NCBI GenBank assembly: GCA_039589995.1
Contig: JBDHGH010000002.1
Span: 1,014 to 65,013 of the forward strand
Reading direction: 5' to 3'
Length of the DNA: 64,000 nt
DNA from: Gemmatimonadota bacterium
Lineage (GTDB): Bacteria > Gemmatimonadota > Gemmatimonadetes > Palauibacterales > KS3-K002
Made by a program: the position numbers and the translations under genes. The notes beneath the pieces were generated by a model, which was not told where the DNA came from, did no database searches, and worked only from the letters and a program-made list of their open reading frames with translations. Positions 19,188 through 31,259 of the stretch are shown here, one piece after another; position 1 is the stretch's first letter, and the number at the start of each line of letters is the position of its first letter.

Positions 19188-21387
19188 CCTCGAATGTGCG
19201 CAGTTGTCTCCCCATGCGCTCGGCGAGGTTATCCCATATCCTCAGCCTGATTTCGTACTCGCCCGCAGGCACTTCTTGCGGATCCAGTGACAGGTACTCC
19301 GTCACCCGGTCACGTCCATCCATCTTGACCTCTCGGCTGAACTGCAGTTCCAGCCGATCATCGCCGACTATGCTGAATCCCCAGGCGTCGGCAAGATCAC
19401 CGATAATCGCACCGATTCCGCTTCGGGAGATGCTCTTGACCCTGACCTGGATAGAAACTTGGTAAGAGGCGAAGCCCTCCGAATCCTGATCCAAGCCATA
19501 GATCTCATAGTAGATATGTACAGGGTCACCGGAATTGTACTCCAATGCCGCATTAGGCCAGACCTCGTAGTCCGACCGCTTCACCGGCTCTTCCACCAGC
19601 GGCTTGATATAGTCGGCGACCAGTATGTCGCTGACCTTCATCGAATCTTCCGGGTAAGCCTCGACGTCGAAGCTTTCGCGCGTCGCCGCCGATCGCCAAG
19701 TCACTTCGTCGCGCGCCTCGACCGCTGCCACCAACTGTTGGCCCGGCGCGAGAATTAGCCGCCAGCTCCTGTACTCGTCGATGTCCGGCGACTCGTCGTA
19801 CTCCAATGTCTCCGTATTGGTGCGTTGCAACACCTTGTCCCCGGCCGCGTTGATCAAGAACAAGCCCGTCTCTATTTCACCCTCGTCCAGGTCGAGCCCA
19901 CGAGCGAATTCCTCCAGCGGCAACGCCGCGTGGACCTCGAGCGCGACCTCGTCCGGAGTCTCGCCGCGGAATCGTGCCAATTGGATCGGCATTTCCATCA
20001 ATTGTGGAATCGACGGAATATTCACGTACGTCACCGGCTGCAGGTAACGGTAGTTCTCGGCGACGAACTTGTAATCTCCCGCGAAGCGCGCATTCAAGTA
20101 GCCCGGCATCTGTTGGAAGATGAACACCGGACCGTCATAGCCATAGCTCCAAATAATAGACCGCCGCCCAACCGCATACGGATTTCCCGTGACATACGGA
20201 CTCGCCCCAAACGACGCGATCGACATGGGGTGGCCATAGCGAACGAAGATGATCCCCTGATCGGTTTGCCACCCACGCAACCCGGCCTCGGGAGCCGAGA
20301 AACGAAGGTCGGCATATGAGACCCGAGATAGGTGTTCCAATCGCCTCTCGTTCGCATCGGTGAGATACAGCGGGTCGGACAGCAACCAGTACGTCTCATT
20401 GAAATCCTCCCGGCCGTCCTCGTCAAGCCGCATGTACTCCCGGGCCTCATCGCGCCGCATCACCTCGGCCAAGCTCTCGACTTGCCGCCTTTCCTCATCC
20501 GTCAGTCGCTTCAGGCCGTCTTCGAATGCCTCCGATGCCGATTCCTCTCGACCGGCTGCGTGCAACCCAAGTCCCAGGTACAGAAACGGTAGGGGCCGAT
20601 CGGGGTGGGCGGATCGGAGCCGCCGCGCAATCGACAGGTACTCGCCCAGCCTCTGCTCGTCCAGCAGCTGTCCCATCAGCCGCACCGAAGCACCCACGTG
20701 CTCCGGATCGAAGCGCAGCGCCGCCCGATAGTGCTCGATCATCTCGTCCTTGGTCATCTGCCCCGAGCCCTTGATCGGCGTCGTCTGACTCATGTACTCG
20801 TTGCCGTAGCGTACCGGGCCCTGGGTGCCACCAAAGCCATACGTTCCCATCGGATCGAAATCGTCCTGGGGCGGCCCCATGTTCAATGGGTTGAAACGCC
20901 GGTACTCGATCGTCCTATACCACAGCTCCTTGAGATACCCCAGGTTGAAGTGTACTTCGGCCAAGATCGACGGGTCGGACTGCTTCTCGGCTGCCGCCAG
21001 CGCTCGGTCGAACAAGCGGCCCGCGTCCACCTTCATGTGCTGCTTCAAGCGAAGGCGCGCCAACTCCAATAGGTAGCGGGGTTCGCCGGGGCTGATCCGC
21101 AGCGCTTCTAAGAGGAGGTTCTCCGCCTTCCTACGATCTCGCCAATCGGTCTCGATCGCATTGGCACTTTCGGTGTAGATCCGCCCGAGGTAGTAGTAGG
21201 GATCGCTCATCTTGGGGGCGGCTTTGCGGGCCTTTTCAAACTCAGCGAGGGCGCGCGCGGTATCTCCAGATAGGGCGGCATCGAGGCCCACTTGGATGTA
21301 CTCCCGGGCTACATCTTCCTGTGCCGATGCGGTCTGAGCCGACACCAACACAAGAGCCGATAGCAGGACAGAGATGGCGTGCTTCAC
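19168..21387 (-). CDS. TPR plus GWxTD domain protein, secreted
   Basis: Signal peptide MKHAISVLLSALVLVSAQTASAQ, N-terminal TPR-like repeats, and the motif GLRGWQTDQGIIFVRYGHP, which is the GWxTD domain signature. Confidence 0.8.
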   Translation of the reverse strand: MKHAISVLLSALVLVSAQTASAQEDVAREYIQVGLDAALSGDTARALAEFEKARKAAPKMSDPYYYLGRIYTESANAIETDWRDRRKAENLLLEALRISPGEPRYLLELARLRLKQHMKVDAGRLFDRALAAAEKQSDPSILAEVHFNLGYLKELWYRTIEYRRFNPLNMGPPQDDFDPMGTYGFGGTQGPVRYGNEYMSQTTPIKGSGQMTKDEMIEHYRAALRFDPEHVGASVRLMGQLLDEQRLGEYLSIARRLRSAHPDRPLPFLYLGLGLHAAGREESASEAFEDGLKRLTDEERRQVESLAEVMRRDEAREYMRLDEDGREDFNETYWLLSDPLYLTDANERRLEHLSRVSYADLRFSAPEAGLRGWQTDQGIIFVRYGHPMSIASFGASPYVTGNPYAVGRRSIIWSYGYDGPVFIFQQMPGYLNARFAGDYKFVAENYRYLQPVTYVNIPSIPQLMEMPIQLARFRGETPDEVALEVHAALPLEEFARGLDLDEGEIETGLFLINAAGDKVLQRTNTETLEYDESPDIDEYRSWRLILAPGQQLVAAVEARDEVTWRSAATRESFDVEAYPEDSMKVSDILVADYIKPLVEEPVKRSDYEVWPNAALEYNSGDPVHIYYEIYGLDQDSEGFASYQVSIQVRVKSISRSGIGAIIGDLADAWGFSIVGDDRLELQFSREVKMDGRDRVTEYLSLDPQEVPAGEYEIRLRIWDNLAERMGRQLRTFEVVNDEE

Positions 21388-21645
21388 GGCTGAGTCCTTT
21401 GCTTAGAGCTGTCGAGAACCCGCGCATCTAAAACTTACGGGGGGAATCGAGAAAGGAAAAGGGCCGGCGGTCTCAGTGGCTTTTAAGTACATACAAGACA
21501 GGGTTTTGAGAGCTTAGAGCCAGCGAGCTACCGAGCAGTCCCTCCACGCCCCTTGCCGCTTCAGATGCCGCCAGCCAGTTTAGCCACCACTCAGCGAAAC
21601 ACGGACGATTCCTAGCGAGTCGCGACAAAAAGGGAGAGCCAGGCC

Positions 21646-21780
21646 ATGAACGGGCTTGAAGGCGCGATTCTCATTCCCATTCTCATACTGGGATGCACCG
21701 CGATTATCTACTATGGATTGATCTCCGTCCGGGCGCGTCAACTCGAGTCGCGCCGCGACGATGATCCCTCCAGCGACTAA
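21646..21780 (+). CDS. possible 44-aa single-TM micro-protein
   Basis: Not in the ORF track. The ATG at 21646 is preceded by AAAAAGGGAGAG. Translation is MNGLEGAILIPILILGCTAIIYYGLISVRARQLESRRDDDPSSD, one hydrophobic helix plus a charged tail, 30 nt upstream of kbl. Confidence 0.3.
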   Translation: MNGLEGAILIPILILGCTAIIYYGLISVRARQLESRRDDDPSSD

Positions 21781-21810
21781 TCCTCGAGCCCTTACCAGCC
21801 GGGAGGCTAA

Positions 21811-22998
21811 ATGAACGGGCTATTCGACCGCTTGCGGACCGAGCTCGACGAGATGCGGGAGCAGGGGGTGTACAAGGAGCTGATCCACCTAGATTCACCG
21901 CAGGATGCCGTTGTGAGTATCGATGAGCTCGGCCGTGAAGTAATCAACCTGTGCTCTAACAACTACCTGGGTCTCTGCAACACACCCGAGGTCGTCGCTG
22001 CGGGGTCGGCGGCATACGACGAGTTTGGGGCCGGTACATCGTCGGTTCGATTCATCTGCGGAACGTTTACACTGCACCGGCGGCTCGAAGACAGGATCGC
22101 CGAATTCCTCGGCCTCGAATCAGCACTGACTTACGTCTCCTGCTGGAACGCCAACACCGGTTTGACGCCGACGTTCCTGGGCGAGGAGGACGCGCTCATT
22201 TCCGACGAATTGAACCACGCGTCGATCATCGACGGCGTGAGGGCAACGCGAGCGCAGCGCAAGATTTACAAGCACTCGGACATGGACGACCTGGAGCAGG
22301 CACTGAAGGATACCGCCAGCGCAAGAAGCCGGTTCATCATTACCGACGGTGTCTTCTCCATGGAAGGCGACATCTGCAAGCTTCCGGAAATCCTGGATCT
22401 GGCGGAAGAGTACGATGCCACGGTCACCGTTGATGATTCCCACGCGACGGGCGTTCTCGGTGACACCGGACGCGGCACGCCAGAGCACTACGGACTCCAC
22501 GGCAAGGTGCCGGTTATCACCAGCACACTAGGCAAGGCCCTGGGCGGCGCCGCCGGTGGCTTCACCGCGGGCCCCTCCGAACTGACCGACTATCTGACGC
22601 AACGGTCGCGGCCAATGCTCTTCTCCAATGCGCTACCGCCGGCTACCACGGCGCACTCCCTCGCCGCGATCGACTACCTCGACAGTCATCCTGAATTGAT
22701 ACAGAAGCTTCGAAGTAATACGGAGTACTTTCGCGAAAGACTGCTCGAGGCGGGATTCAACCCCATAGAGGGTGCGACACCGATCGTACCCATCATCATC
22801 GGCGAGACCGCTGAAGCCATTAAGATGAGCCGCATGCTGCTCGATGAAGGGGTCTTCGTGATCGGCTTCGGCTTCCCCGTTGTTCCGCACGGCACGGCGC
22901 GCATCCGCTGCCAGGTCTCGGCTGCCCACGAGATCCAGCACCTGGACGCCGTGCTCGACGCCATGAAGAAGGTGGGCACTCAGCTAGGAATAATCTGA
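21811..22998 (+). CDS. kbl: glycine C-acetyltransferase (2-amino-3-ketobutyrate CoA ligase)
   Basis: MNGLFDRLRTELDEMREQGVYKE...NLCSNNYLGL...SVRFICGT...DELNHASIIDG...DDSHATGVLG...STLGKALGG, the class II aminotransferase / Kbl pattern. Confidence 0.9.
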   Translation: MNGLFDRLRTELDEMREQGVYKELIHLDSPQDAVVSIDELGREVINLCSNNYLGLCNTPEVVAAGSAAYDEFGAGTSSVRFICGTFTLHRRLEDRIAEFLGLESALTYVSCWNANTGLTPTFLGEEDALISDELNHASIIDGVRATRAQRKIYKHSDMDDLEQALKDTASARSRFIITDGVFSMEGDICKLPEILDLAEEYDATVTVDDSHATGVLGDTGRGTPEHYGLHGKVPVITSTLGKALGGAAGGFTAGPSELTDYLTQRSRPMLFSNALPPATTAHSLAAIDYLDSHPELIQKLRSNTEYFRERLLEAGFNPIEGATPIVPIIIGETAEAIKMSRMLLDEGVFVIGFGFPVVPHGTARIRCQVSAAHEIQHLDAVLDAMKKVGTQLGII

Positions 22999-23008
22999 GG
23001 CCGAAACG

Positions 23009-23674
23009 ATGGCACTAATAGCTCCGAGCATTCTCAGCGCGGATTTCACGCGCCTCGGTGACCAGATCGCCGAAGCTGAGGCCGGTGGCGCCGACTGGGT
23101 CCACGTCGACGTGATGGACGGCCATTTCGTCCCAAACATCACGATTGGACCCATGATCGTAGAAGCGGCCCGCCGGGCAACCGACATCCCGCTGGATGTT
23201 CACCTGATGATCGAGAACCCCGACCGCTACCTGGAAGATTTCGTGGGTGCCGGAGCGAACTTCCTCACCGTCCACCAGGAGACGTGTCCGCATCTCCACC
23301 GGACCGTGCAGAGGATCCGAGAGCTCGGCGCTCGTCCCGGGGTGTCGATCAATCCATCCACACCGGTGGAGACGCTGGTCGATGCCCTCCCCTTCGTCGA
23401 CCTCGTGCTCATCATGACGGTCAACCCCGGCTTCGGTGGCCAGAAGTTCATCCCGGAGTGCCTACCCAAGATCGCCCGACTGGCACAACGGCTCGAAGCG
23501 ATGGGACGCCAGGACATCGAGATCGAAGTCGATGGCGGAATCGATCTGACGACGGCACCCGCGACAGTGGGAGCCGGAGCGACCGTGTTGGTCGCCGGCT
23601 CGGCCGTGTTTTCCCGTGGCTCGATCGCAGACAACATCCAGGCCCTGCGCCGCAGCCTGGCCGTCGAGGTCTGA
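23009..23674 (+). CDS. rpe: ribulose-phosphate 3-epimerase
   Basis: IAPSILSADF...DWVHVDVMDGHFVPNITIGP...DVHLMI...VHQE...MTVNPGFGGQKF...EVDGGI, the canonical Rpe sequence. Confidence 0.95.
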   Translation: MALIAPSILSADFTRLGDQIAEAEAGGADWVHVDVMDGHFVPNITIGPMIVEAARRATDIPLDVHLMIENPDRYLEDFVGAGANFLTVHQETCPHLHRTVQRIRELGARPGVSINPSTPVETLVDALPFVDLVLIMTVNPGFGGQKFIPECLPKIARLAQRLEAMGRQDIEIEVDGGIDLTTAPATVGAGATVLVAGSAVFSRGSIADNIQALRRSLAVEV

Positions 23675-23880
23675 TCACAGGGAACCGTCCCCGCTCGCTT
23701 GACGTTTTCGTGGTGAAAAGCTCTGAGTTTGCTCCTGGTTCAATCGAGTGAGTGGAAGGGTGAATCCGAACGCTTGCACCTGTGCCAGCTGTACATACCG
23801 ACCGGCCGAGGCCGCGCGGATGCACCGGTACGCGTGAAGCAGGGGGCAAAGGAGATCGAGTCCCACCCAAGCAAGCACCA

Positions 23881-23914
23881 GCCGCCCGCGCCCTTGGACG
23901 CGGGCGGCTTTTTT
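23881..23914 (+). terminator. rho-independent terminator or attenuator hairpin immediately upstream of cysM
   Basis: Perfect 10-bp GC stem GCCGCCCGCG (23881..23890) / CGCGGGCGGC (23899..23908), an 8-nt loop, then TTTTTT (23909..23914). The cysM ATG lies 16 nt downstream. Confidence 0.8.
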
Positions 23915-23929
23915 GTCAGGCGATGGACG

Positions 23930-24886
23930 ATGATAGAAGCAGCAAGAAACTTCGAATTCGGCGGTCCGGTTGAACAGCACCCCTGCAGGGTCACCGCAGC
24001 GGGGCGAGGTCTATTTGACCTCGTCGGCAGCACGCCGCTCGTTCCCATCGCGCTGCCCGGCGTCGCTCCCGGGGTACAGATCCTGGCGAAGGCCGAGTGG
24101 CTCAACCCGGGGGGCTCGGTGAAGGACCGCGCGGCTCGAGCGATCGTGCTGGAGGCCGAGCGGACGGGCGAGCTTGCGAACAAGCGCCTGCTGGACGCCA
24201 GCTCGGGCAACACCGCCATCGCCTACGCCATGCTGGGGGCCGTTCGCGGGTTCGCGGTGACGATCTGCCTGCCCCAAAACGCCAGCGCGGAACGGAAGGC
24301 GACCCTCGCGGCGTACGGCGCCGAGGTGATCGAGACAGACCCACTCGAGGGCACGGACGGAGCGATCCGCCATGCCCGTCGGTTGGCCGCGGAGAAGGCC
24401 GACGATTACTACTATGCCGACCAGTACAACAACCCGGCAAACGTCCGAGCCCACTACGAGACCACGGGTCCGGAGATTTGGCGGCAGACCCTTGGGGGGA
24501 TCACACATCTGGTCGCCGGCCTGGGCACGACCGGGACTCTAGTGGGAACGGGTCGCTACTTGCGAGAGTGCGACGCCGATGTGCATCTCGTTGCTGTCGA
24601 GCCGGACGACGGCTTCCACGGGATCGAAGGGTTGAAGCACATACCCACGTCGATAGTCCCGGGTATCTACGACCGACGGCTGCCGACTCGAACAATTCGT
24701 GTGCATACGGAACAGGCCTACGATATGACCCGGACATTGGCTCGCGAGTTCGGATTGCTTGTGGGGCCATCGTCAGGCGCCGCGGCCGTTGCGGCAGAAG
24801 AAATCGCCTCAGAACTCATCGCGGGCTGCGTTGTCGCCATCTTTCCCGATAGCGCGGCCCGCTACATCAGTCTTGGGCTTTGGTGA
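23930..24886 (+). CDS. cysM: CysM-type cysteine synthase (PLP-dependent, thiocarboxylate/O-phosphoserine type inferred from context)
   Basis: ORF 23729..24886, but its first 67 codons run through the terminator hairpin, so I use the ATG at 23930. It has LVGSTPLVPI, the PLP-Lys motif GGSVKDRAA, SSGNTAIAYA, and GLGTTGTLVGTGRYLRE, closely recalling M. tuberculosis CysM. Confidence 0.85.
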   Translation: MIEAARNFEFGGPVEQHPCRVTAAGRGLFDLVGSTPLVPIALPGVAPGVQILAKAEWLNPGGSVKDRAARAIVLEAERTGELANKRLLDASSGNTAIAYAMLGAVRGFAVTICLPQNASAERKATLAAYGAEVIETDPLEGTDGAIRHARRLAAEKADDYYYADQYNNPANVRAHYETTGPEIWRQTLGGITHLVAGLGTTGTLVGTGRYLRECDADVHLVAVEPDDGFHGIEGLKHIPTSIVPGIYDRRLPTRTIRVHTEQAYDMTRTLAREFGLLVGPSSGAAAVAAEEIASELIAGCVVAIFPDSAARYISLGLW

Positions 24887-24892
24887 CACACC

Positions 24893-25363
24893 ATGATGAG
24901 TGAGGAACGACGTCAGACATCATCGGAGGAGGCCGCACGCCTCGTTCTCGGAGCGGAGAGCCTTGCGAAGATTCGCGAACACCTTCAGCTCTCGTACCCC
25001 GAAGAAGCGTGCGGCGGTCTGCTCGGTCGTATCGCGTATGACAACGTCGTCGTCGTCGAAGAAACCGTATCGCTGGCAAACGCCCGCGTGGCGGAGCGCC
25101 GCCGGCGGTATCTCATCGGTCCGACCGATGTCCTCGAACTGGAACGTCGAGCCGAGGCATCCGGTCTCCAGGTCGTCGGGTATTACCACTCTCACCCGGA
25201 CGCGCCGCCCGTACCTTCGGAATTCGATCGAAAACACGCTTGGCCCTGGTACGCCTACCTAATCGCCAGCGTGGAGAGCGGGAATCTGACGCGATCGCAA
25301 GCCTGGCGACTGTCCGACGACCGCGAGCGCTTTTTGCCGCTGCAGCTGAGCGAAGAGGAGTAA
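24893..25363 (+). CDS. JAMM/MPN+ (Mov34) metalloprotease, Mec-like
   Basis: Catalytic Glu context YPEEACGGLLG and the JAMM motif HSHPDAPPVPSEFD (HxHx7Sx2D). Confidence 0.85.
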   Translation: MMSEERRQTSSEEAARLVLGAESLAKIREHLQLSYPEEACGGLLGRIAYDNVVVVEETVSLANARVAERRRRYLIGPTDVLELERRAEASGLQVVGYYHSHPDAPPVPSEFDRKHAWPWYAYLIASVESGNLTRSQAWRLSDDRERFLPLQLSEEE

Positions 25364-25389
25364 GCCCCAACCCCAAAGGCACCGAGACC

Positions 25390-26847
25390 ATGAGAAGAAT
25401 CTCCATTATTGTACCTACACCCTTGACGCAGTACACCGAGGGCCTGGACACCGTCGAGGTGGACGCTGACACCGTGGACCAGGCGCTCGATGCACTGACG
25501 AACCGTCACTCGGCGCTTAGGCGGCACTTGTACTCAGAAGACGGACACTTGCGGAGTTTCGTCAACATCTACCTAAATGAAGAGGATATCCGCTACCTTG
25601 AAGGTGGAGAGCGCGCCGGCTTGGAAAGCGGGGACGAGATCCGGATCGTCCCTTCCATCGCCGGTGGCAGAGTAGCGACCTTGGAAAAGGACCCAATGGA
25701 GCTCAGCCAGAACGAAGTCCGGCGTTATGCCCGCCATATCATCATGCCCGAGGTGGGGCTCGAAGGCCAGAAAAAGCTCAAGCAGGCCAGAGTTCTGCTG
25801 ATCGGGGCCGGCGGACTGGGCTCGCCATCGTCCCTCTACCTGGCCGCCGCCGGCGTTGGCACTATCGGCCTGGTCGATTTCGATGTGGTGGACGCCAGTA
25901 ATCTGCAGCGCCAGATCATTCACGGCACGCGCGACGTCGGTCGTGCCAAGTTGGACTCTGCCCGCGAGCGTTTGCTCGATGTGAATCCGGAGATAGCAGT
26001 GGAAACCCACGAGGTCCGCCTGCAATCGGACAACGCGCTCGATATACTCGAAGGCTATGACATCGTCGTCGACGGGACGGACAACTTTCCGACGCGTTAC
26101 TTGGTCAACGACGCCTGCGTTCTGCTGGGGAAGCCTAACGTCTACGGATCTATCTTCCGATTCGAAGGACAGGCATCGGTGTTCTACGCCAAGGAAGGCC
26201 CGTGCTATCGCTGCCTCTTCCGCGAACCACCACCTCCCGGGCTCGTACCGTCCTGCGCCGAAGGCGGAGTGCTCGGCGTCCTGCCCGGAATAGTCGGCGC
26301 CCTTCAGGCCAACGAGACCATCAAACTCATTATCGGCGAAGGCGAGCCGCTGATCGGACGGCTGCTCCTCTTCGACGCCCTAGGGATGAGATTTCGGGAG
26401 CTGCGGCTTCGAAAAGACCCGGAGTGCCCGATCTGCGGCGAGAACCCCACCGTCAGTCAGCTAATCGACTACGACGAGTTTTGCGGCGTCACTCAAGCTC
26501 AGCAGGAGCGTCAGGCGGCCCTGAGCCAGGTGCCAGCCATCACGGCCACCGAGTTGAAGGCGCGGCTCGACGCCGGTGCTGCGGTCCGAGTCATCGACGT
26601 ACGAGAGCCGCACGAGTGGAACATCTGCAACCTCGAAGTAGCCGAACTGGTACCGATCGGCTCGTTTCCGGGTCAGTTGAACAGCCTGGGCAACGCGGAG
26701 GAGGTTGTGGTGATCTGCCGGACCGGCCGTCGAAGCGCACACGCGGTTCGGCTGCTGCAGGAGATCGGTTTTCGCAAGGTCTACAATTTGACCGGCGGGC
26801 TTCATGCCTGGTCCGACGAAGTAGATCCTTCTATGCCCAAGTACTGA
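25390..26847 (+). CDS. tri-domain fusion: CysO/ThiS/MoaD-like sulfur carrier (ends ..AGG) plus MoeZ/ThiF-type adenylyltransferase plus rhodanese
   Basis: The ATG at 25390 lies after the JAMM gene stop. Residues 1-93 end IVPSIAGG. Next come RYARHIIMPEVGLEGQKKLKQARVLLIGAGGLGSP...NLQRQIIHG...CYRC...SCAEGGVLG...CPICG (E1-like), then a rhodanese domain with active-site ICRTGRRS. Confidence 0.85.
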   Translation: MRRISIIVPTPLTQYTEGLDTVEVDADTVDQALDALTNRHSALRRHLYSEDGHLRSFVNIYLNEEDIRYLEGGERAGLESGDEIRIVPSIAGGRVATLEKDPMELSQNEVRRYARHIIMPEVGLEGQKKLKQARVLLIGAGGLGSPSSLYLAAAGVGTIGLVDFDVVDASNLQRQIIHGTRDVGRAKLDSARERLLDVNPEIAVETHEVRLQSDNALDILEGYDIVVDGTDNFPTRYLVNDACVLLGKPNVYGSIFRFEGQASVFYAKEGPCYRCLFREPPPPGLVPSCAEGGVLGVLPGIVGALQANETIKLIIGEGEPLIGRLLLFDALGMRFRELRLRKDPECPICGENPTVSQLIDYDEFCGVTQAQQERQAALSQVPAITATELKARLDAGAAVRVIDVREPHEWNICNLEVAELVPIGSFPGQLNSLGNAEEVVVICRTGRRSAHAVRLLQEIGFRKVYNLTGGLHAWSDEVDPSMPKY

Positions 26848-26874
26848 TGCTGTTCTACCCACTCACACAACAGC

Positions 26875-27666
26875 ATGACGCACCCCTATTTCAACCCTGA
26901 GCCGATGGTCTTGGCACACAGGGGTGCCTCCGCCTACGCGCCCGACCACACGCTCGACGCCATGCGCGTCGCCGTCGAACAGGGCGCCGACGCGATCGAG
27001 GCCGATGTGCATCTGACGCGTGACGGCCACGTCGTGTTCCACCACGGTGGTGATCTGTCCGAGAACACCGACGGGCGCGGGCCGTTGAAGCAGTTCACCC
27101 TGGACGAAGTCCGCAACTTCGATGCGGGATTCCAGTGGTCGGCCGACGACGGCGCCACTTTCCCGTTTCGGGGGCAAGGGCAGCGAGTCACCACGCTTCG
27201 AGAAGCGCTCGAGACCTTTCCGGACGTTCGCTTCAACCTCGACATCAAGGAGCGACGTGCCGCCCGTGCTACGCGCCGTTTGATCGACGAGTACGATGCC
27301 AGCGATCGCGTGCTTCTCGCCGCCTTCCACTCGTGGCAGCGAGCCCCCGCGCTACGGGACTACTCAGGCCCCCGCAGTATTACGACCGAGCAGATGGCTG
27401 CCTTCCTGCTCCTTCACTGGTTGAGACTGGACGGCCTGTGGGGGGTGGAGATCGATGCTCTGCAGCTCCCCGAAAGCTACTGGGGCCTTAGGGTGCTGAC
27501 ACCTCGATTGGTCGAACGAGCACATGCGCAGGGTATGCGCGTGCATGTCTGGACCGTGGATAGCGAGGCGGACATGGACCGGTTGCTCGATTGGGGTGTC
27601 GACGGCATCATCACCAAGAAGCCCGACCTGGCCGTGAAGGCCAGGACCCGACACCTTGGTGACTAG
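26875..27666 (+). CDS. glycerophosphodiester phosphodiesterase family protein
   Basis: VLAHRGASAYAPDHTLDAM...GADAIEADVHLTRDGHVVFHH...VHVWTVD, the GDPD signature. Confidence 0.9.
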   Translation: MTHPYFNPEPMVLAHRGASAYAPDHTLDAMRVAVEQGADAIEADVHLTRDGHVVFHHGGDLSENTDGRGPLKQFTLDEVRNFDAGFQWSADDGATFPFRGQGQRVTTLREALETFPDVRFNLDIKERRAARATRRLIDEYDASDRVLLAAFHSWQRAPALRDYSGPRSITTEQMAAFLLLHWLRLDGLWGVEIDALQLPESYWGLRVLTPRLVERAHAQGMRVHVWTVDSEADMDRLLDWGVDGIITKKPDLAVKARTRHLGD

Positions 27667-27702
27667 TCGAAGCCGAGCGCTTGCTCCGAAAACCCTGACT
27701 CG

Positions 27703-28905
27703 ATGAGAACCGTCTCGAAAACGGTGCACAAAAGCACTGCACGTCTCATGCAAGCGGCCGCCATACCCATCCTGGTGACCCTCATGGCTACAGATTCGAT
27801 GGCCCAGAACGAACGGCCGCGCGCTCGAGATATCGGCGTGGCACCCGGGATCTTCCGGCCCGGGACTCACAACGCAATCACAGATGTCGCGGGTGTCCGA
27901 GTCGGCCACACCACGGTCTGGGAGGGCGACTCCATTCGAACCGGCGTCACCGTCATTCTGCCGCACGCCGGCAACCTGTATAGAGAGCGCGTGCCCGGGG
28001 CCGTCTACATCGGCAACGCCTTTGGCAAGTTGATTGGCTCGACGCAGATACAAGAGCTGGGCGAACTGGAAACGCCGATCGCCTTGACCTGCACGCTCTG
28101 CGTCTGGCAAGTCGCCGATGCCATGGTGGATTACCTGCTCGGTCAGCCCGGAATGGAGAACGTCCGCTCGATCAATCCGGTGGTCGGCGAAACCAACGAC
28201 GGATCGCTGAACGACATCCGCGCCCGGCCCATCCGCCCGGAGCACGTCATCAAGGCTCTACAGTCCGCCGAGTCGGGGCCGGTAACAGAAGGCGCGGTCG
28301 GCGCAGGAACGGGAACGCGCGCGTTCGGCTGGAAGGGCGGCATCGGAACGAGCTCTCGTGTCTTGTCGAAGGAGCTGGGCGGCTGGTCGGTGGGGGTGCT
28401 GGTCCAATCCAATTTCGGCGGCACGCTGCAGGTTCTGGGAGCGCCGGTTGGCATCGAGCTTGGCCGGTACATTTATCGCGACATCGTGGACCCCGGCGGG
28501 TCCGGTGAAGCCGAAGATTCTGGTGACGGGTCGATCATGATCGTGGTCGCTACGGACGCGCCCCTTTCCCATCGCAACCTCGAGCGGTTGGCTGCCCGTG
28601 CCATCCTGGGGCTGTCTCGCACCGGTTCTCCCGGGACCAATGGGAGCGGCGACTTCGTGATAGCCTTCTCCACCGCCGAGTCGGTCCGCCGCTTCGCAGG
28701 TTCGAGAGAACCACACACGGTGGACGATCTGCCGAACGAAGGCATGTCGCCACTGTTCCAAGCTGCCGTGGAAGCAACCGAGGAAGCGATCCTCAACTCC
28801 CTGTTCAAGGCGGTCACCGTAAGCGGTCACCGCGGCACGGCGGAGGCGTTGCCTATCGAGGAAACGCTCGAGATTCTAGCCAAGTACGGAGTGGTGAGGA
28901 GGTGA
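27703..28905 (+). CDS. DmpA/S58 (P1) family aminopeptidase, secreted
   Basis: Signal-like N-terminus, then NAITDVAGVRVGHTT...TGVTVILP...VVGETNDGSLND...GAVGAGTGTRAFGWKGGIGTSS. Confidence 0.85.
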   Translation: MRTVSKTVHKSTARLMQAAAIPILVTLMATDSMAQNERPRARDIGVAPGIFRPGTHNAITDVAGVRVGHTTVWEGDSIRTGVTVILPHAGNLYRERVPGAVYIGNAFGKLIGSTQIQELGELETPIALTCTLCVWQVADAMVDYLLGQPGMENVRSINPVVGETNDGSLNDIRARPIRPEHVIKALQSAESGPVTEGAVGAGTGTRAFGWKGGIGTSSRVLSKELGGWSVGVLVQSNFGGTLQVLGAPVGIELGRYIYRDIVDPGGSGEAEDSGDGSIMIVVATDAPLSHRNLERLAARAILGLSRTGSPGTNGSGDFVIAFSTAESVRRFAGSREPHTVDDLPNEGMSPLFQAAVEATEEAILNSLFKAVTVSGHRGTAEALPIEETLEILAKYGVVRR

Positions 28906-29187: not shown

Positions 29188-30147
29188 TTAGACACCGACC
29201 GCAGGGCGCGAAGCGCTCGTGACCAAAGCGTCGCGCACGGCCTTGCAGATCTCTATTCCCGAGAGCGTTTGAGCCTCATGCGTGGCCGCTCCCAGGTGAG
29301 CGATCGCGATCACGTTGTCGAGGCGCAGCAGCGTGTTGTCGGCCGCGATCGGCTCCTCTTGGAACACATCGAGCGCCGCACCCGCCAACTTCCCACTCCG
29401 CAGACTCTCTTCCAAAGCTGCCTCGTCAACGATGCCGCCGCGAGCCGCGTTGATCAGGTAGGCTGTGGGCTTCATCATCGCTAGCTCGTCGGACCCGACC
29501 AGCCCGCGCGTTTCTGCGGTCATAGGAGCGTGAATCGACACCAGGTCGGCAGCCCGAAAAAGCTCATCCAGCGGAACCAGCTCGGCCCCGATGTCGCGAG
29601 CGCGTTGTTCAGACAGATACGGATCGTGAATGATCACCCGCATCCCGAACGCCAATCCTCTCTTGGCGACCTCGGCGCCGATCCGACCCGCGCCGATCAG
29701 GCCCAGCGTCTTCCCGTTGAGCTCGATGCCCTTGAAACGGTCTCGCTCCCACTCCCCGCGCTTGAGGGACGCTGCAGCTTGAGGAACGTGTCGCACCAAC
29801 GACAGCATGAGCGCCATCGTCAGTTCCGCTGCGGAAACGACGTTGCCACCGGGAGCGTTGAGCACCGTAATGCCACGCTTCTCCGCCGCAACAACATCGA
29901 TGTTGTCGACCCCGACACCTGCGCGTCCTACGACTCTCAGGCGTTGACCAGCCTCGAGGATGCGCGCCGTGACCCGAGTCCGGCTGCGCACGATCAGCGC
30001 ATCGTACTCGCCGACGACCGCTTCGAGTTCGCCGGCATCGATCCCCGCCCTGTCGTCGACCTGTATCCCCGCCGCATCCTCCAACACCCGGACACCCTCG
30101 GGCGCGATCTGATCCGCCAGCAGAACACGAAAGCTGTGATCTGTCAC
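29188..30147 (-). CDS. serA: D-3-phosphoglycerate dehydrogenase-like 2-hydroxyacid dehydrogenase (short form, no ACT domain)
   Basis: RVVGRAGVGVDNIDV, NAD motif GLIGAGRIGAEVA, INAARGGIVDE, and a C-terminal His region. Confidence 0.8.
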   Translation of the reverse strand: MTDHSFRVLLADQIAPEGVRVLEDAAGIQVDDRAGIDAGELEAVVGEYDALIVRSRTRVTARILEAGQRLRVVGRAGVGVDNIDVVAAEKRGITVLNAPGGNVVSAAELTMALMLSLVRHVPQAAASLKRGEWERDRFKGIELNGKTLGLIGAGRIGAEVAKRGLAFGMRVIIHDPYLSEQRARDIGAELVPLDELFRAADLVSIHAPMTAETRGLVGSDELAMMKPTAYLINAARGGIVDEAALEESLRSGKLAGAALDVFQEEPIAADNTLLRLDNVIAIAHLGAATHEAQTLSGIEICKAVRDALVTSASRPAVGV

Positions 30148-31259
30148 GACTGACTGACCTCCTGTGCGCTGACTAACACCGAAGCTAAAACCTCGAGAAG
30201 AGCCTCGAGTTCCCCCATAGTATGATCACCCATGTGGCCGATGCGGAAGGTCCGCTCCTTGAGCTTCCCGTATCCGGAAGCGATGGTATAACCGTGCTCT
30301 TTCATGCCGCGCGCTACTTCGACACCGTTCAACCCGTCTGGCAAGACAACGCATGTGACCGACGCCGATCGCCGCCCCGCTTCCGCAAGGACTTCGACCT
30401 CGATGCCGTGCCGTGCTCGCATTTCGTCGACCCAGCGCCAGGTGCGTTCCGCCATGCTCTGATGTCGAGCCCACCGAGCGTCTAGACCCTCGATCTCGAT
30501 CTCCTGAAGTTGCACGTCCAGTGCATACAGGAGCGAGACGGCCGGCGTGTTCGACGTTTGGCTCCCCGCGACAGCCGCCTCGAACGCCTCGAAGTCGAAG
30601 TAGAGTCCCCGACCCTTCGTCCTCAACGCGCGGTCGTATGCGCGCTGCGACGCCACTCCGAACGCCAGGCCCGGCGGCAGCGCCAACCCCTTCTGCGAGC
30701 CAGCCAGGGCAAAGTCGAGCCCCCACTCGTCGACCTCGACCGGTACGGCCGCAAGAGAAGTCACACAGTCCACCAGCACTTGCGTGCCAGGAGAGGCCTC
30801 ACGGACGGCCGCGACGATCTGTTCTACGGGGTTCACGACCCCGGTCGAAGTCTCGGAATGAACCACCGTAACCGCATCATAGCTGTGCGTCGCGACTGCA
30901 TCCGCCACCTCGTCCGGCTCGTTGGATTTCCCGAGCTCGACATCGAGGCGGTCGGCTTCCTTTCCACAGGACACCGCGATCTTGTGGAATCGCTCGCTGA
31001 AGGCGCCGCATACGAGCGATAGCACTCGGTCCGGAACACAGTTACGGACGGCGGCTTCCATCAGCCCGGTGGCCGACGAAGTCGATACGTAGACCGGACG
31101 CTGTGTGCGAAAAAGCCAGCGGAGTCGCGGCGCGATCCGCTGCATGAGCTCTTCCATCTCCTCGCCGCGATGCGCGATGACCGGACGCACCATCGCGTCG
31201 AGGACCTCGGGCCTGACTTCTGTCGGGCCCGGGAGAAAGTACTTGCCGAAATCGACCAA
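30144..31259 (-). CDS. class V aminotransferase (serine-glyoxylate / phosphoserine aminotransferase type)
   Basis: FLPGPTEVRPEVL...HRGEE...VVHSETSTGV...GSQKGLALPPGL...FRIGHMG. It overlaps serA-like by 4 nt. Confidence 0.85.
   Translation of the reverse strand: MVDFGKYFLPGPTEVRPEVLDAMVRPVIAHRGEEMEELMQRIAPRLRWLFRTQRPVYVSTSSATGLMEAAVRNCVPDRVLSLVCGAFSERFHKIAVSCGKEADRLDVELGKSNEPDEVADAVATHSYDAVTVVHSETSTGVVNPVEQIVAAVREASPGTQVLVDCVTSLAAVPVEVDEWGLDFALAGSQKGLALPPGLAFGVASQRAYDRALRTKGRGLYFDFEAFEAAVAGSQTSNTPAVSLLYALDVQLQEIEIEGLDARWARHQSMAERTWRWVDEMRARHGIEVEVLAEAGRRSASVTCVVLPDGLNGVEVARGMKEHGYTIASGYGKLKERTFRIGHMGDHTMGELEALLEVLASVLVSAQEVSQS

Follow-up and report, generated by a model that had tools for sequence, protein, structure and literature searches.

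Mycobacterium tuberculosis has a cysteine pathway made up of CysO, CysM, Mec+, and MoeZ, in which Mec+ hydrolyzes CysO-Cys (PMC3227635). A gene set of this kind, with a ThiS/MoaD-type sulfur carrier, an E1-rhodanese protein, a JAB peptidase, and a cysteine synthase, was catalogued as operon type 4c by Iyer, Burroughs, and Aravind in 2006 and was already listed there for the acidobacterium Solibacter usitatus (PMC1779556). Here we describe an operon from a Gemmatimonadota bacterium (assembly GCA_039589995.1, contig JBDHGH010000002.1) in which the carrier is fused in a single open reading frame (ORF) to its own activating enzyme. The window that we analyzed is the whole stretch of 64,000 nucleotides around it, positions 1,014 to 65,013 of the forward strand of the contig. 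The three genes cysM, jamm, and cysO::moeZ probably form an operon for cysteine synthesis of the CysO/CysM/Mec+/MoeZ type, in which the carrier precursor would be released by the JAMM protease of the operon.

Carriers with additional residues past their Gly-Gly end have been described in several pathways. JAB peptidases were proposed to cut fused ThiS/MoaD domains and thereby free their C terminus (Iyer et al. 2006, PMC1779556). In the thioquinolobactin pathway, QbsD trims a 2-residue tail from QbsE, and in the chuangxinmycin pathway CxnF is proposed to remove a decapeptide from CxnE (PMC5925218). DR0402 of Deinococcus radiodurans cleaves the MoaD-MoaE fusion and exposes the glycine, and MoaX of M. 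tuberculosis is a related case (PMC8832034). Fusions of an N-terminal ubiquitin-like (Ubl) domain to ThiF are found in delta- and epsilonproteobacteria and in Firmicutes, where they lie in thiamine operons that also encode a separate ThiS, from which the fused domain is described as distinct (Iyer et al. 2006, PMC1779556). An earlier note on this DNA, made from the sequence alone, had presented a carrier-E1-rhodanese polyprotein as lacking experimental precedent. In the literature collection searched, no paper that describes or tests such a fusion was found. As a claim of novelty the statement was overstated, because release of fused or tailed carriers by JAMM/JAB proteins has already been proposed or documented (PMC1779556, PMC8832034, PMC5925218). 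The carrier-E1-rhodanese fusion is a widespread, uncharacterized variant of known JAMM-trimmed carrier systems, neat rather than surprising.

The window operon is like the CysO pathway and type 4c in encoding the same four protein types, with a C-terminal rhodanese on the E1, an intact JAMM motif, and a CysM-type enzyme. Unlike CysO of M. tuberculosis, the carrier is joined through a 9-residue linker to the N terminus of the E1 and has no free GG end, whereas moeZ of M. tuberculosis is a separate gene without a carrier domain. Like QbsE, CxnE, MoaD-MoaE, and MoaX, the carrier has residues encoded past its GG, and hydrolysis of a peptide bond is needed to produce Gly-COOH; like QbsE and CxnE, it has a JAMM protein encoded in its own cluster. 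The leaving group differs from those of QbsE, CxnE, and MoaD-MoaE, being the carrier's own 392-residue E1-rhodanese instead of a tail of 2 to 10 residues or MoaE. The Ubl-ThiF fusions of Iyer et al. likewise place a ubiquitin-fold domain N-terminal to a ThiF-type adenylation domain, but in the window the fused domain is the only carrier of the locus, a CysO orthologue with conserved GG, and its neighbors are cysM and the JAMM gene instead of thiG or thiC. The arrangement also resembles ubiquitin fusions, in which an N-terminal ubiquitin-fold domain is released after GG by a dedicated peptidase, as would be the case here. In contrast to ubiquitin-like conjugation systems, the carrier belongs to the ThiS/MoaD family, its product would be a thiocarboxylate, there is no E2 or E3, and the partner is the E1 itself. 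A bacterial ubiquitin-like conjugation or defense system (CBASS Cap2/Cap3, Bil, or 6A-MBL) was considered and rejected because there is no E2 and the neighboring genes are metabolic; PADLOC hits were confined to generic JAB profiles and to the Rossmann portion of E1-E2 profiles.

The fusion ORF begins with an ATG at 25390, ends with a stop codon at 26845..26847, and is free of stops from 25390 to 26844 (Table 1). Residues 4 to 93 of the carrier domain align end to end with residues 3 to 93 of M. tuberculosis CysO (PDB 3DWG_C, 1.3e-12), a 93-residue chain that ends in AGG, and the domain also aligns end to end with an Amycolatopsis carrier (4N6E_B, 1.5e-14). The GG of the fusion therefore coincides with the C terminus of a free-standing carrier. 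In the translated protein, 392 further residues come after this GG in the same frame; it is not a free C terminus, so a free carboxylate requires proteolysis; the earlier note was right that the carrier glycine is internal and must be released. The E1 domain contains a GAGGLG nucleotide loop, a zinc site (C272/C275/C346/C349), and a loop cysteine (C289, 26254..26256), all invariant in our conservation alignment of 47 sequences. In an AlphaFold2 model of the fusion (mean predicted local distance difference test [pLDDT] score, 84.9), this domain superposes on Escherichia coli MoeB (1JW9_B) with a template modeling (TM) score of 0.95 and a root mean square deviation of 1.8 A. The rhodanese active-site Cys443 (26716..26718) lies in the motif CRTGRRS, of which C443, G446, R448, and S449 are invariant in the same alignment. 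Homology to stand-alone enzymes starts at residue 103 or 104, where the alignments enter MoeB at residue 3, Uba4 (6YUB_A) at residue 5, and the MoeZ model PRK07878 at position 13 (2.2e-156, under the equivalog cut-off). The statement that the ATG at 25696 falls where stand-alone enzymes begin is thus accurate to within a few residues for MoeB but not for actinobacterial MoeZ, which starts about 12 residues earlier. The positions given in the earlier note for the GG (25663..25668), the following AGA (25669..25671), and the motif GGAAAAGGA ending 4 nt before that ATG are all correct.

Table 1. Features of the cysM-jamm-cysO::moeZ operon, in window coordinates
Feature	Position	Strand	Basis
Terminator-like hairpin	23880..23909	+	11-bp stem with 10 GC, then TTTTTTG
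CysM-type pyridoxal phosphate-dependent cysteine synthase, first gene of the operon	23930..24886	+	Pfam PALP, 4.7e-66
JAMM/MPN+ metalloprotease, Mec+-like	24893..25363	+	Pfam Prok-JAB, 5.9e-25
Fusion ORF, 485 aa: CysO-like carrier, linker, ThiF/MoeB adenylation domain, rhodanese	25390..26847	+	ORF and Pfam
CysO-like beta-grasp sulfur-carrier domain, residues 1-93, ending IVPSIAGG	25390..25668	+	Pfam ThiS, residues 12-93, 2.7e-09; CysO alignment
Predicted scissile site, after Gly92-Gly93 and before Arg94 (GGT GGC / AGA)	25663..25671	+	Conservation and P1' statistics
Linker RVATLEKDP, residues 94-102, with GGAAAAGGA at 25683..25691	25669..25695	+	Translation
E1-like adenylation domain, residues 103-347	25696..26430	+	Pfam ThiF, residues 113-347, 6.3e-84
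Rhodanese domain, residues 385-476	26542..26817	+	Pfam Rhodanese, residues 385-476, 3.8e-17

The in-frame fusion proposed in the earlier note is genuine. The same three Pfam domains are present in 119 of the 120 best database homologues, which share 62 to 92% identity with the window protein over approximately 100% of its length and mostly have 476 to 517 residues; the named homologues among them are from metagenome-assembled genomes (MAGs) of Gemmatimonadota and Acidobacteria. We also collected 81 related loci, 80 of them from a scan of species-representative genomes and one from a complete Gemmatimonadota chromosome, and typed each as fused or split by ORF and hidden Markov model analysis. 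Carrier and E1 lie in one uninterrupted ORF in 60 of the 81. Fused loci occur in Gemmatimonadota, many classes of Acidobacteriota, and Eisenbacteria, and the other taxon labels on a few fused MAGs may be binning errors. Neither the 81 loci nor the 64-kb window yielded a second CysO-like domain or ORF. When the window is counted with the 81 related loci, 67 of the 82 sources share the gene order cysM-jab-carrier/E1, and 57 of 61 fused loci have the JAMM gene less than 400 nt upstream. In the window, the intergenic gaps are 6 nt between cysM and the JAMM gene and 26 nt between the JAMM gene and the fusion ORF. The JAMM motif, read from the translation, is intact (E37/E38 ... H99-S-H101-x7-S109-x2-D112, with H99 to D112 encoded at 25187..25228), and the top PDB match of the protein, 2KCQ, aligns across it.

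The junction between carrier and E1 combines a fixed Gly-Gly with a free-ranging linker. P88, S89, A91, G92, and G93 are invariant in the 47-sequence alignment, and GG is present in 198 of 200 fused sequences. The residue that follows it may be R, S, A, V, L, G, K, I, D, T, or M in the same alignment, and the linker differs in both length and sequence among homologues: 183 distinct linkers span 3 to 43 residues, with Ala, Val, Thr, Pro, and Glu abundant and Cys entirely absent. In the AlphaFold2 model, pLDDT falls below 50 only at residues 89 to 101, which predicts a disordered and accessible GG tail and linker. Proline is absent from P1', the position directly after GG, both in the 183 linkers, where 18.9 would be expected, and in 117 tails of nonfused relatives. 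It nevertheless accounts for 10.4% of linker residues and, at the next position, P2', ranks second in frequency (32 of 183). This contrast between P1' and P2' is strong and is of the kind that a scissile bond would produce. Avoidance of proline at P1' is a classically known property of ubiquitin fusions. Small residues prevail at P1', with A, S, V, or T in 81% of the linkers (counts include A 58, V 29, and R 16), and in size they come close to cysteine, which a Mec+-type hydrolase naturally releases as its leaving group. From these patterns we infer cleavage after GG, with the JAMM protein of the operon as the probable protease. The earlier note had named the adjacent JAMM protein as the obvious candidate. 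The invariant GG, the variable and apparently disordered linker, the absence of proline at P1', the many fused loci without any possible internal start (26 of 61), and the proximity of the JAMM gene are all consistent with cleavage after GG.

It is likely that the pathway operates as follows. Translation would yield a precursor with the carrier at its N terminus and the activating enzyme of that carrier as its C-terminal part, and the JAMM protein would cut between Gly93 and Arg94 in the exposed, disordered linker to yield CysO with a Gly-Gly-COOH end and MoeZ with a short N-terminal remnant. MoeZ would then adenylate Gly93, and a persulfide on Cys443 would turn the adenylate into a thiocarboxylate. 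CysM would join the thiocarboxylate to the aminoacrylate formed from its substrate, which would be either O-phosphoserine or O-acetylserine, to give CysO-Cys, from which the JAMM protein would release cysteine by hydrolyzing the bond after GG in each cycle. If the JAMM protein cuts after GG in every cycle, anything encoded past GG would be removed at no extra cost and without any new activity. Such cost-free removal would explain tails of any length, the fusion to E1, and the interconversion of fused and split forms by single stop-codon changes, and repeated cutting at this bond would also account for the rule of small residues and no proline at P1'.

Several observations weigh against this reading. 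The predicted TM score of the fusion model is 0.67, which bears on the geometry between domains. CysM is closer to the enterobacterial enzymes (top PDB relatives 2JC3 and 2V03) than, by PDB scores, to the O-phosphoserine-specific CysM of the mycobacterial CysO pathway (3DKI, 3e-47), and the NCBIfam cysM model matches it at 1.8e-95, under the model cut-off. In three fused loci (L051, L057, and L071), the 5 kb on each side contain no JAMM gene. The junction statistics are drawn from related sequences, so that both the number of independent observations and any naive probability for the missing proline are overstated, and cleavage after GG is itself deduced from sequence patterns. Lastly, the junction of the Gemmatimonadaceae locus L076, LVPSIAAGSDALSHEE, has AG in place of GG and the shortest linker, of 3 residues. 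L076 is the only full-length fused orthologue with Ala-Gly (the other exception to GG is a partial sequence), its JAMM gene still adjoins, and it may represent a poorly cleavable or differently processed variant.

Cleavage after GG could instead be the work of another protease or of autoprocessing, with the adjacent JAMM protein hydrolyzing only CysO-Cys. M. tuberculosis MoaX, which needs cleavage for activity, offers a parallel (Narrandes et al. 2015 as cited in PMC8832034). The three fused loci without a nearby JAMM gene would also fit. Narrandes et al. reportedly identified no protease for the MoaX cleavage. We nonetheless consider this explanation unlikely, given that the JAMM gene adjoins nearly all fused loci and that hydrolysis of CysO-Cys and cleavage of the GG-X bond involve identical bond chemistry on one carrier. 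Autoproteolysis through an N-O or N-S acyl shift is not favored, because P1' is not consistently Ser, Thr, or Cys and Ala, Val, and Arg are frequent there besides Ser and Thr. A further alternative is that the fusion works uncleaved, with its N-terminal ubiquitin-fold domain serving in regulation or docking and not as a thiocarboxylate carrier, as proposed for the Ubl-ThiF fusions of epsilonproteobacteria. Iyer et al. inferred a different role for the fused domain of their Ubl-ThiF proteins, which co-occur with a separate ThiS. The present loci have no separate carrier, the fused domain is a full-length CysO orthologue whose GG aligns with the CysO C terminus and is conserved along with the P1' pattern, and CysM and the JAMM protein would be left without a substrate, all of which makes an uncleaved module very improbable.

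Free E1 might also arise by translation initiation at Met103 through GGAAAAGGA, which would make the fusion a minor or nonfunctional by-product and leave the pathway to a separate carrier; we regard this as quite improbable. The window gene does have an ATG with a weak Shine-Dalgarno (SD)-like motif, and among the split relatives the E1 of L040 starts at the position equivalent to Met103, while the E1s of split Terriglobia forms start at a conserved Met-Ala (mostly MAT) after an SD-like motif. Against this, Met103 is not conserved in the 47 sequences (mostly Val, also Leu, Ala, Ile, Pro, and Thr), and only 7 of 61 fused loci have a start-like codon (ATG, GTG, or TTG) at the equivalent position. 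The linker has no in-frame ATG, GTG, or TTG anywhere in 26 of the 61 (43%), and there the E1 must be made only as a fusion. We compared anti-SD duplex energies with internal controls and true starts. The predicted pairing 5' of the ATG at 25696 has an energy of -5.5 kcal/mol, which places this ATG 10th among 25 internal start-like codons of the same gene; the value overlaps the range of true starts in the window (+2.9 to -10.3 kcal/mol), although these are often weak (-3.4, -3.6, and +2.9 kcal/mol), which limits the power of the comparison. SD-like tetramers stand upstream of 6 of the 27 in-frame ATG, GTG, or TTG codons scanned in the ORF, and 131 of its 485 codons (27%) are one substitution away from a stop. 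Because near-stop codons and SD-like tetramers are this common and the SD pairing is unremarkable, neither AGA 25669 nor GGAAAAGGA-ATG carries evidential weight as a relic; they are no more than chance would give. We rejected a conserved internal SD and start, as there is no signal above background in the window gene, and likewise AGA as a fossil stop, a position that is not conserved. The view in the earlier note of the junction as a fossil stop codon plus intergenic spacer with a usable internal start is thus not borne out. Initiation at Met103 in this one organism is nevertheless conceivable. The absence of a second CysO-like ORF and the invariant PSIAGG of the fused domain also speak against a separate working carrier and a nonfunctional fusion. 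Finally, two genes could in principle have been joined by a sequencing or assembly error or by stop-codon recoding at 25669; the earlier note had kept sequencing error and recoding as an alternative. TGA does occupy the equivalent codon in the split loci L073 and L058. The closest homologues, at 92, 85, and 80% identity, are however fused with different sense codons at this position, as are more than 100 others from independent assemblies, and together with the 60 uninterrupted ORFs they exclude error or recoding for practical purposes, leaving it a negligible probability.

Carrier and E1 are adjacent but in separate ORFs in 19 of the related loci, and two more loci have about 1.1 to 1.2 kb between them. 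Fifteen of the 19 adjacent pairs are in frame, parted only by in-frame TAA, TAG, or TGA stops 0 to 27 codons after GG (L010, L014, L016, L018, L020, L027, L029, L038, L040, L044, L046, L073, L077, L078, and L081), and four are out of frame. One third would be expected in frame, and the frame is kept even across multistop spacers of 81 to 216 nt; among the phylogenetically scattered split cases, 6 of 8 are in frame (binomial P of ~0.02). A neighbor-joining tree of the E1 domain puts split forms in one Terriglobia clade and, apart from it, in no fewer than eight separate positions among fused relatives; the near relatives of the window are all fused. The simplest reading is that in this clade the fusion is old and the split forms look to be derived repeatedly through nonsense mutation, which keeps the reading frame automatically. 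Repeated nonsense fission explains the scattered in-frame pairs but does not fully explain why the older Terriglobia clade has kept the frame. The root state of the wider family was presumably split, as in Actinobacteria. The comparison of fused and stop-separated orthologues suggested in the earlier note has a clear outcome: forms split by TGA, TAA, or TAG do exist, with TGA at the very equivalent of 25669..25671 in the Gemmatimonadota loci L073 and L058, but the split state looks derived. These same two loci are also two of the three split loci that lack a JAMM gene, and in both the carrier stops exactly at GG and has no tail to trim. In the compact split loci L073, L020, and L081, the Gly-Gly codons GGA GGN form a GGAGG SD sequence for the E1 start, which follows within a few bases; examples that span the carrier/E1 junction are GCGGGAGGCTGAGCCATG in L073 and GCAGGAGGTTGCTGAAAGATG in L081.

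Stand-alone carriers often have tails as well, in keeping with the proposed cleavage and with a need for trimming across the wider family. Among the representatives nearest to the carrier domain, the C-terminal end could be scored in 134; 50% identity clustering and partial metagenomic genes blur the lengths in this representative library, which gives no usable count of fused versus free carriers. Six of the 134 end at GG, 65 have tails of 1 to 30 residues, and 20 run into E1. Two or more cysteines are present in 15 of 81 short tails, for example CCCCCCL, CCPPAACCCR, and CCPCGCCCCPR (sources with Cys-rich tails are L016, L029, L046, and L067, as well as P0121, P0146, P0151, P0161, P0184, P0208, P0234, P0245, P0248, and P0256). 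Cysteine accounts for 9.1% of tail residues versus 0.06% of carrier bodies, with none in the linkers of fused proteins. One idea is that the Cys-rich tails make translation pause, as a sensor of cysteine, shortly before the E1 start. Three tails consist of a single Cys, and such a protein is a genetically encoded CysO-Cys.

These loci provide a natural series that runs from GG-stop through GG-Cys, GG with Cys-rich tails, and in-frame stop-separated pairs to full fusions, and that could serve in studies of how genes fuse and split and of which substrates Mec+-type proteases accept. If the proposed cleavage is correct, it would be the first characterized release of a ubiquitin-fold carrier from its own activating enzyme and would extend JAMM precursor processing beyond short tails and MoaD-MoaE fusions. 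A more speculative possibility, which we think rather unlikely, is that the uncleaved fusion is an auto-inhibited zymogen that keeps carrier and E1 at a strict 1:1 ratio and inert until the JAMM protein cuts the linker. Licensing and turnover of the entire cysteine pathway would then both depend on one metalloprotease, and evolution would have found different ways of regulating the licensing step in the repeated fused/split interconversions and in the Cys-rich tails of split forms. The system would in that case be a ubiquitin-type precursor matured from its own E1, and the natural series would bear on the origin of ubiquitin-precursor processing. These findings also matter for genome annotation. 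JGI product names for the fused proteins give all three functions, and NCBI names them simply MoeB. With public labels such as "MoeB" or "adenylyltransferase/sulfurtransferase," a CysO-dependent cysteine route is easily missed in Gemmatimonadota and Acidobacteriota, two abundant soil phyla.

Upstream of the operon, the terminator-like hairpin lies about 20 nt 5' of the cysM start, within the 255-nt gap that follows rpe. Comparable hairpins precede cysM in L001 (about 25 nt before it), L004, L062, L079, and L066. The hairpin could be the rpe terminator or a leader or attenuator of the cysteine operon; an Rfam scan of 21000..28000 gave no match to a riboswitch or other known RNA. On the opposite strand, 2.3 kb downstream of the fusion operon, a short phosphoglycerate-dehydrogenase-like gene overlaps a class V aminotransferase gene with weak similarity to serC (29188..30147 and 30144..31259, both minus strand). 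This pair may form phosphoserine, with all matches under the model cut-offs, and would be relevant if CysM uses O-phosphoserine. The same pair is found in the Gemmatimonadota chromosome CP070815 (L001, 12538..14579).

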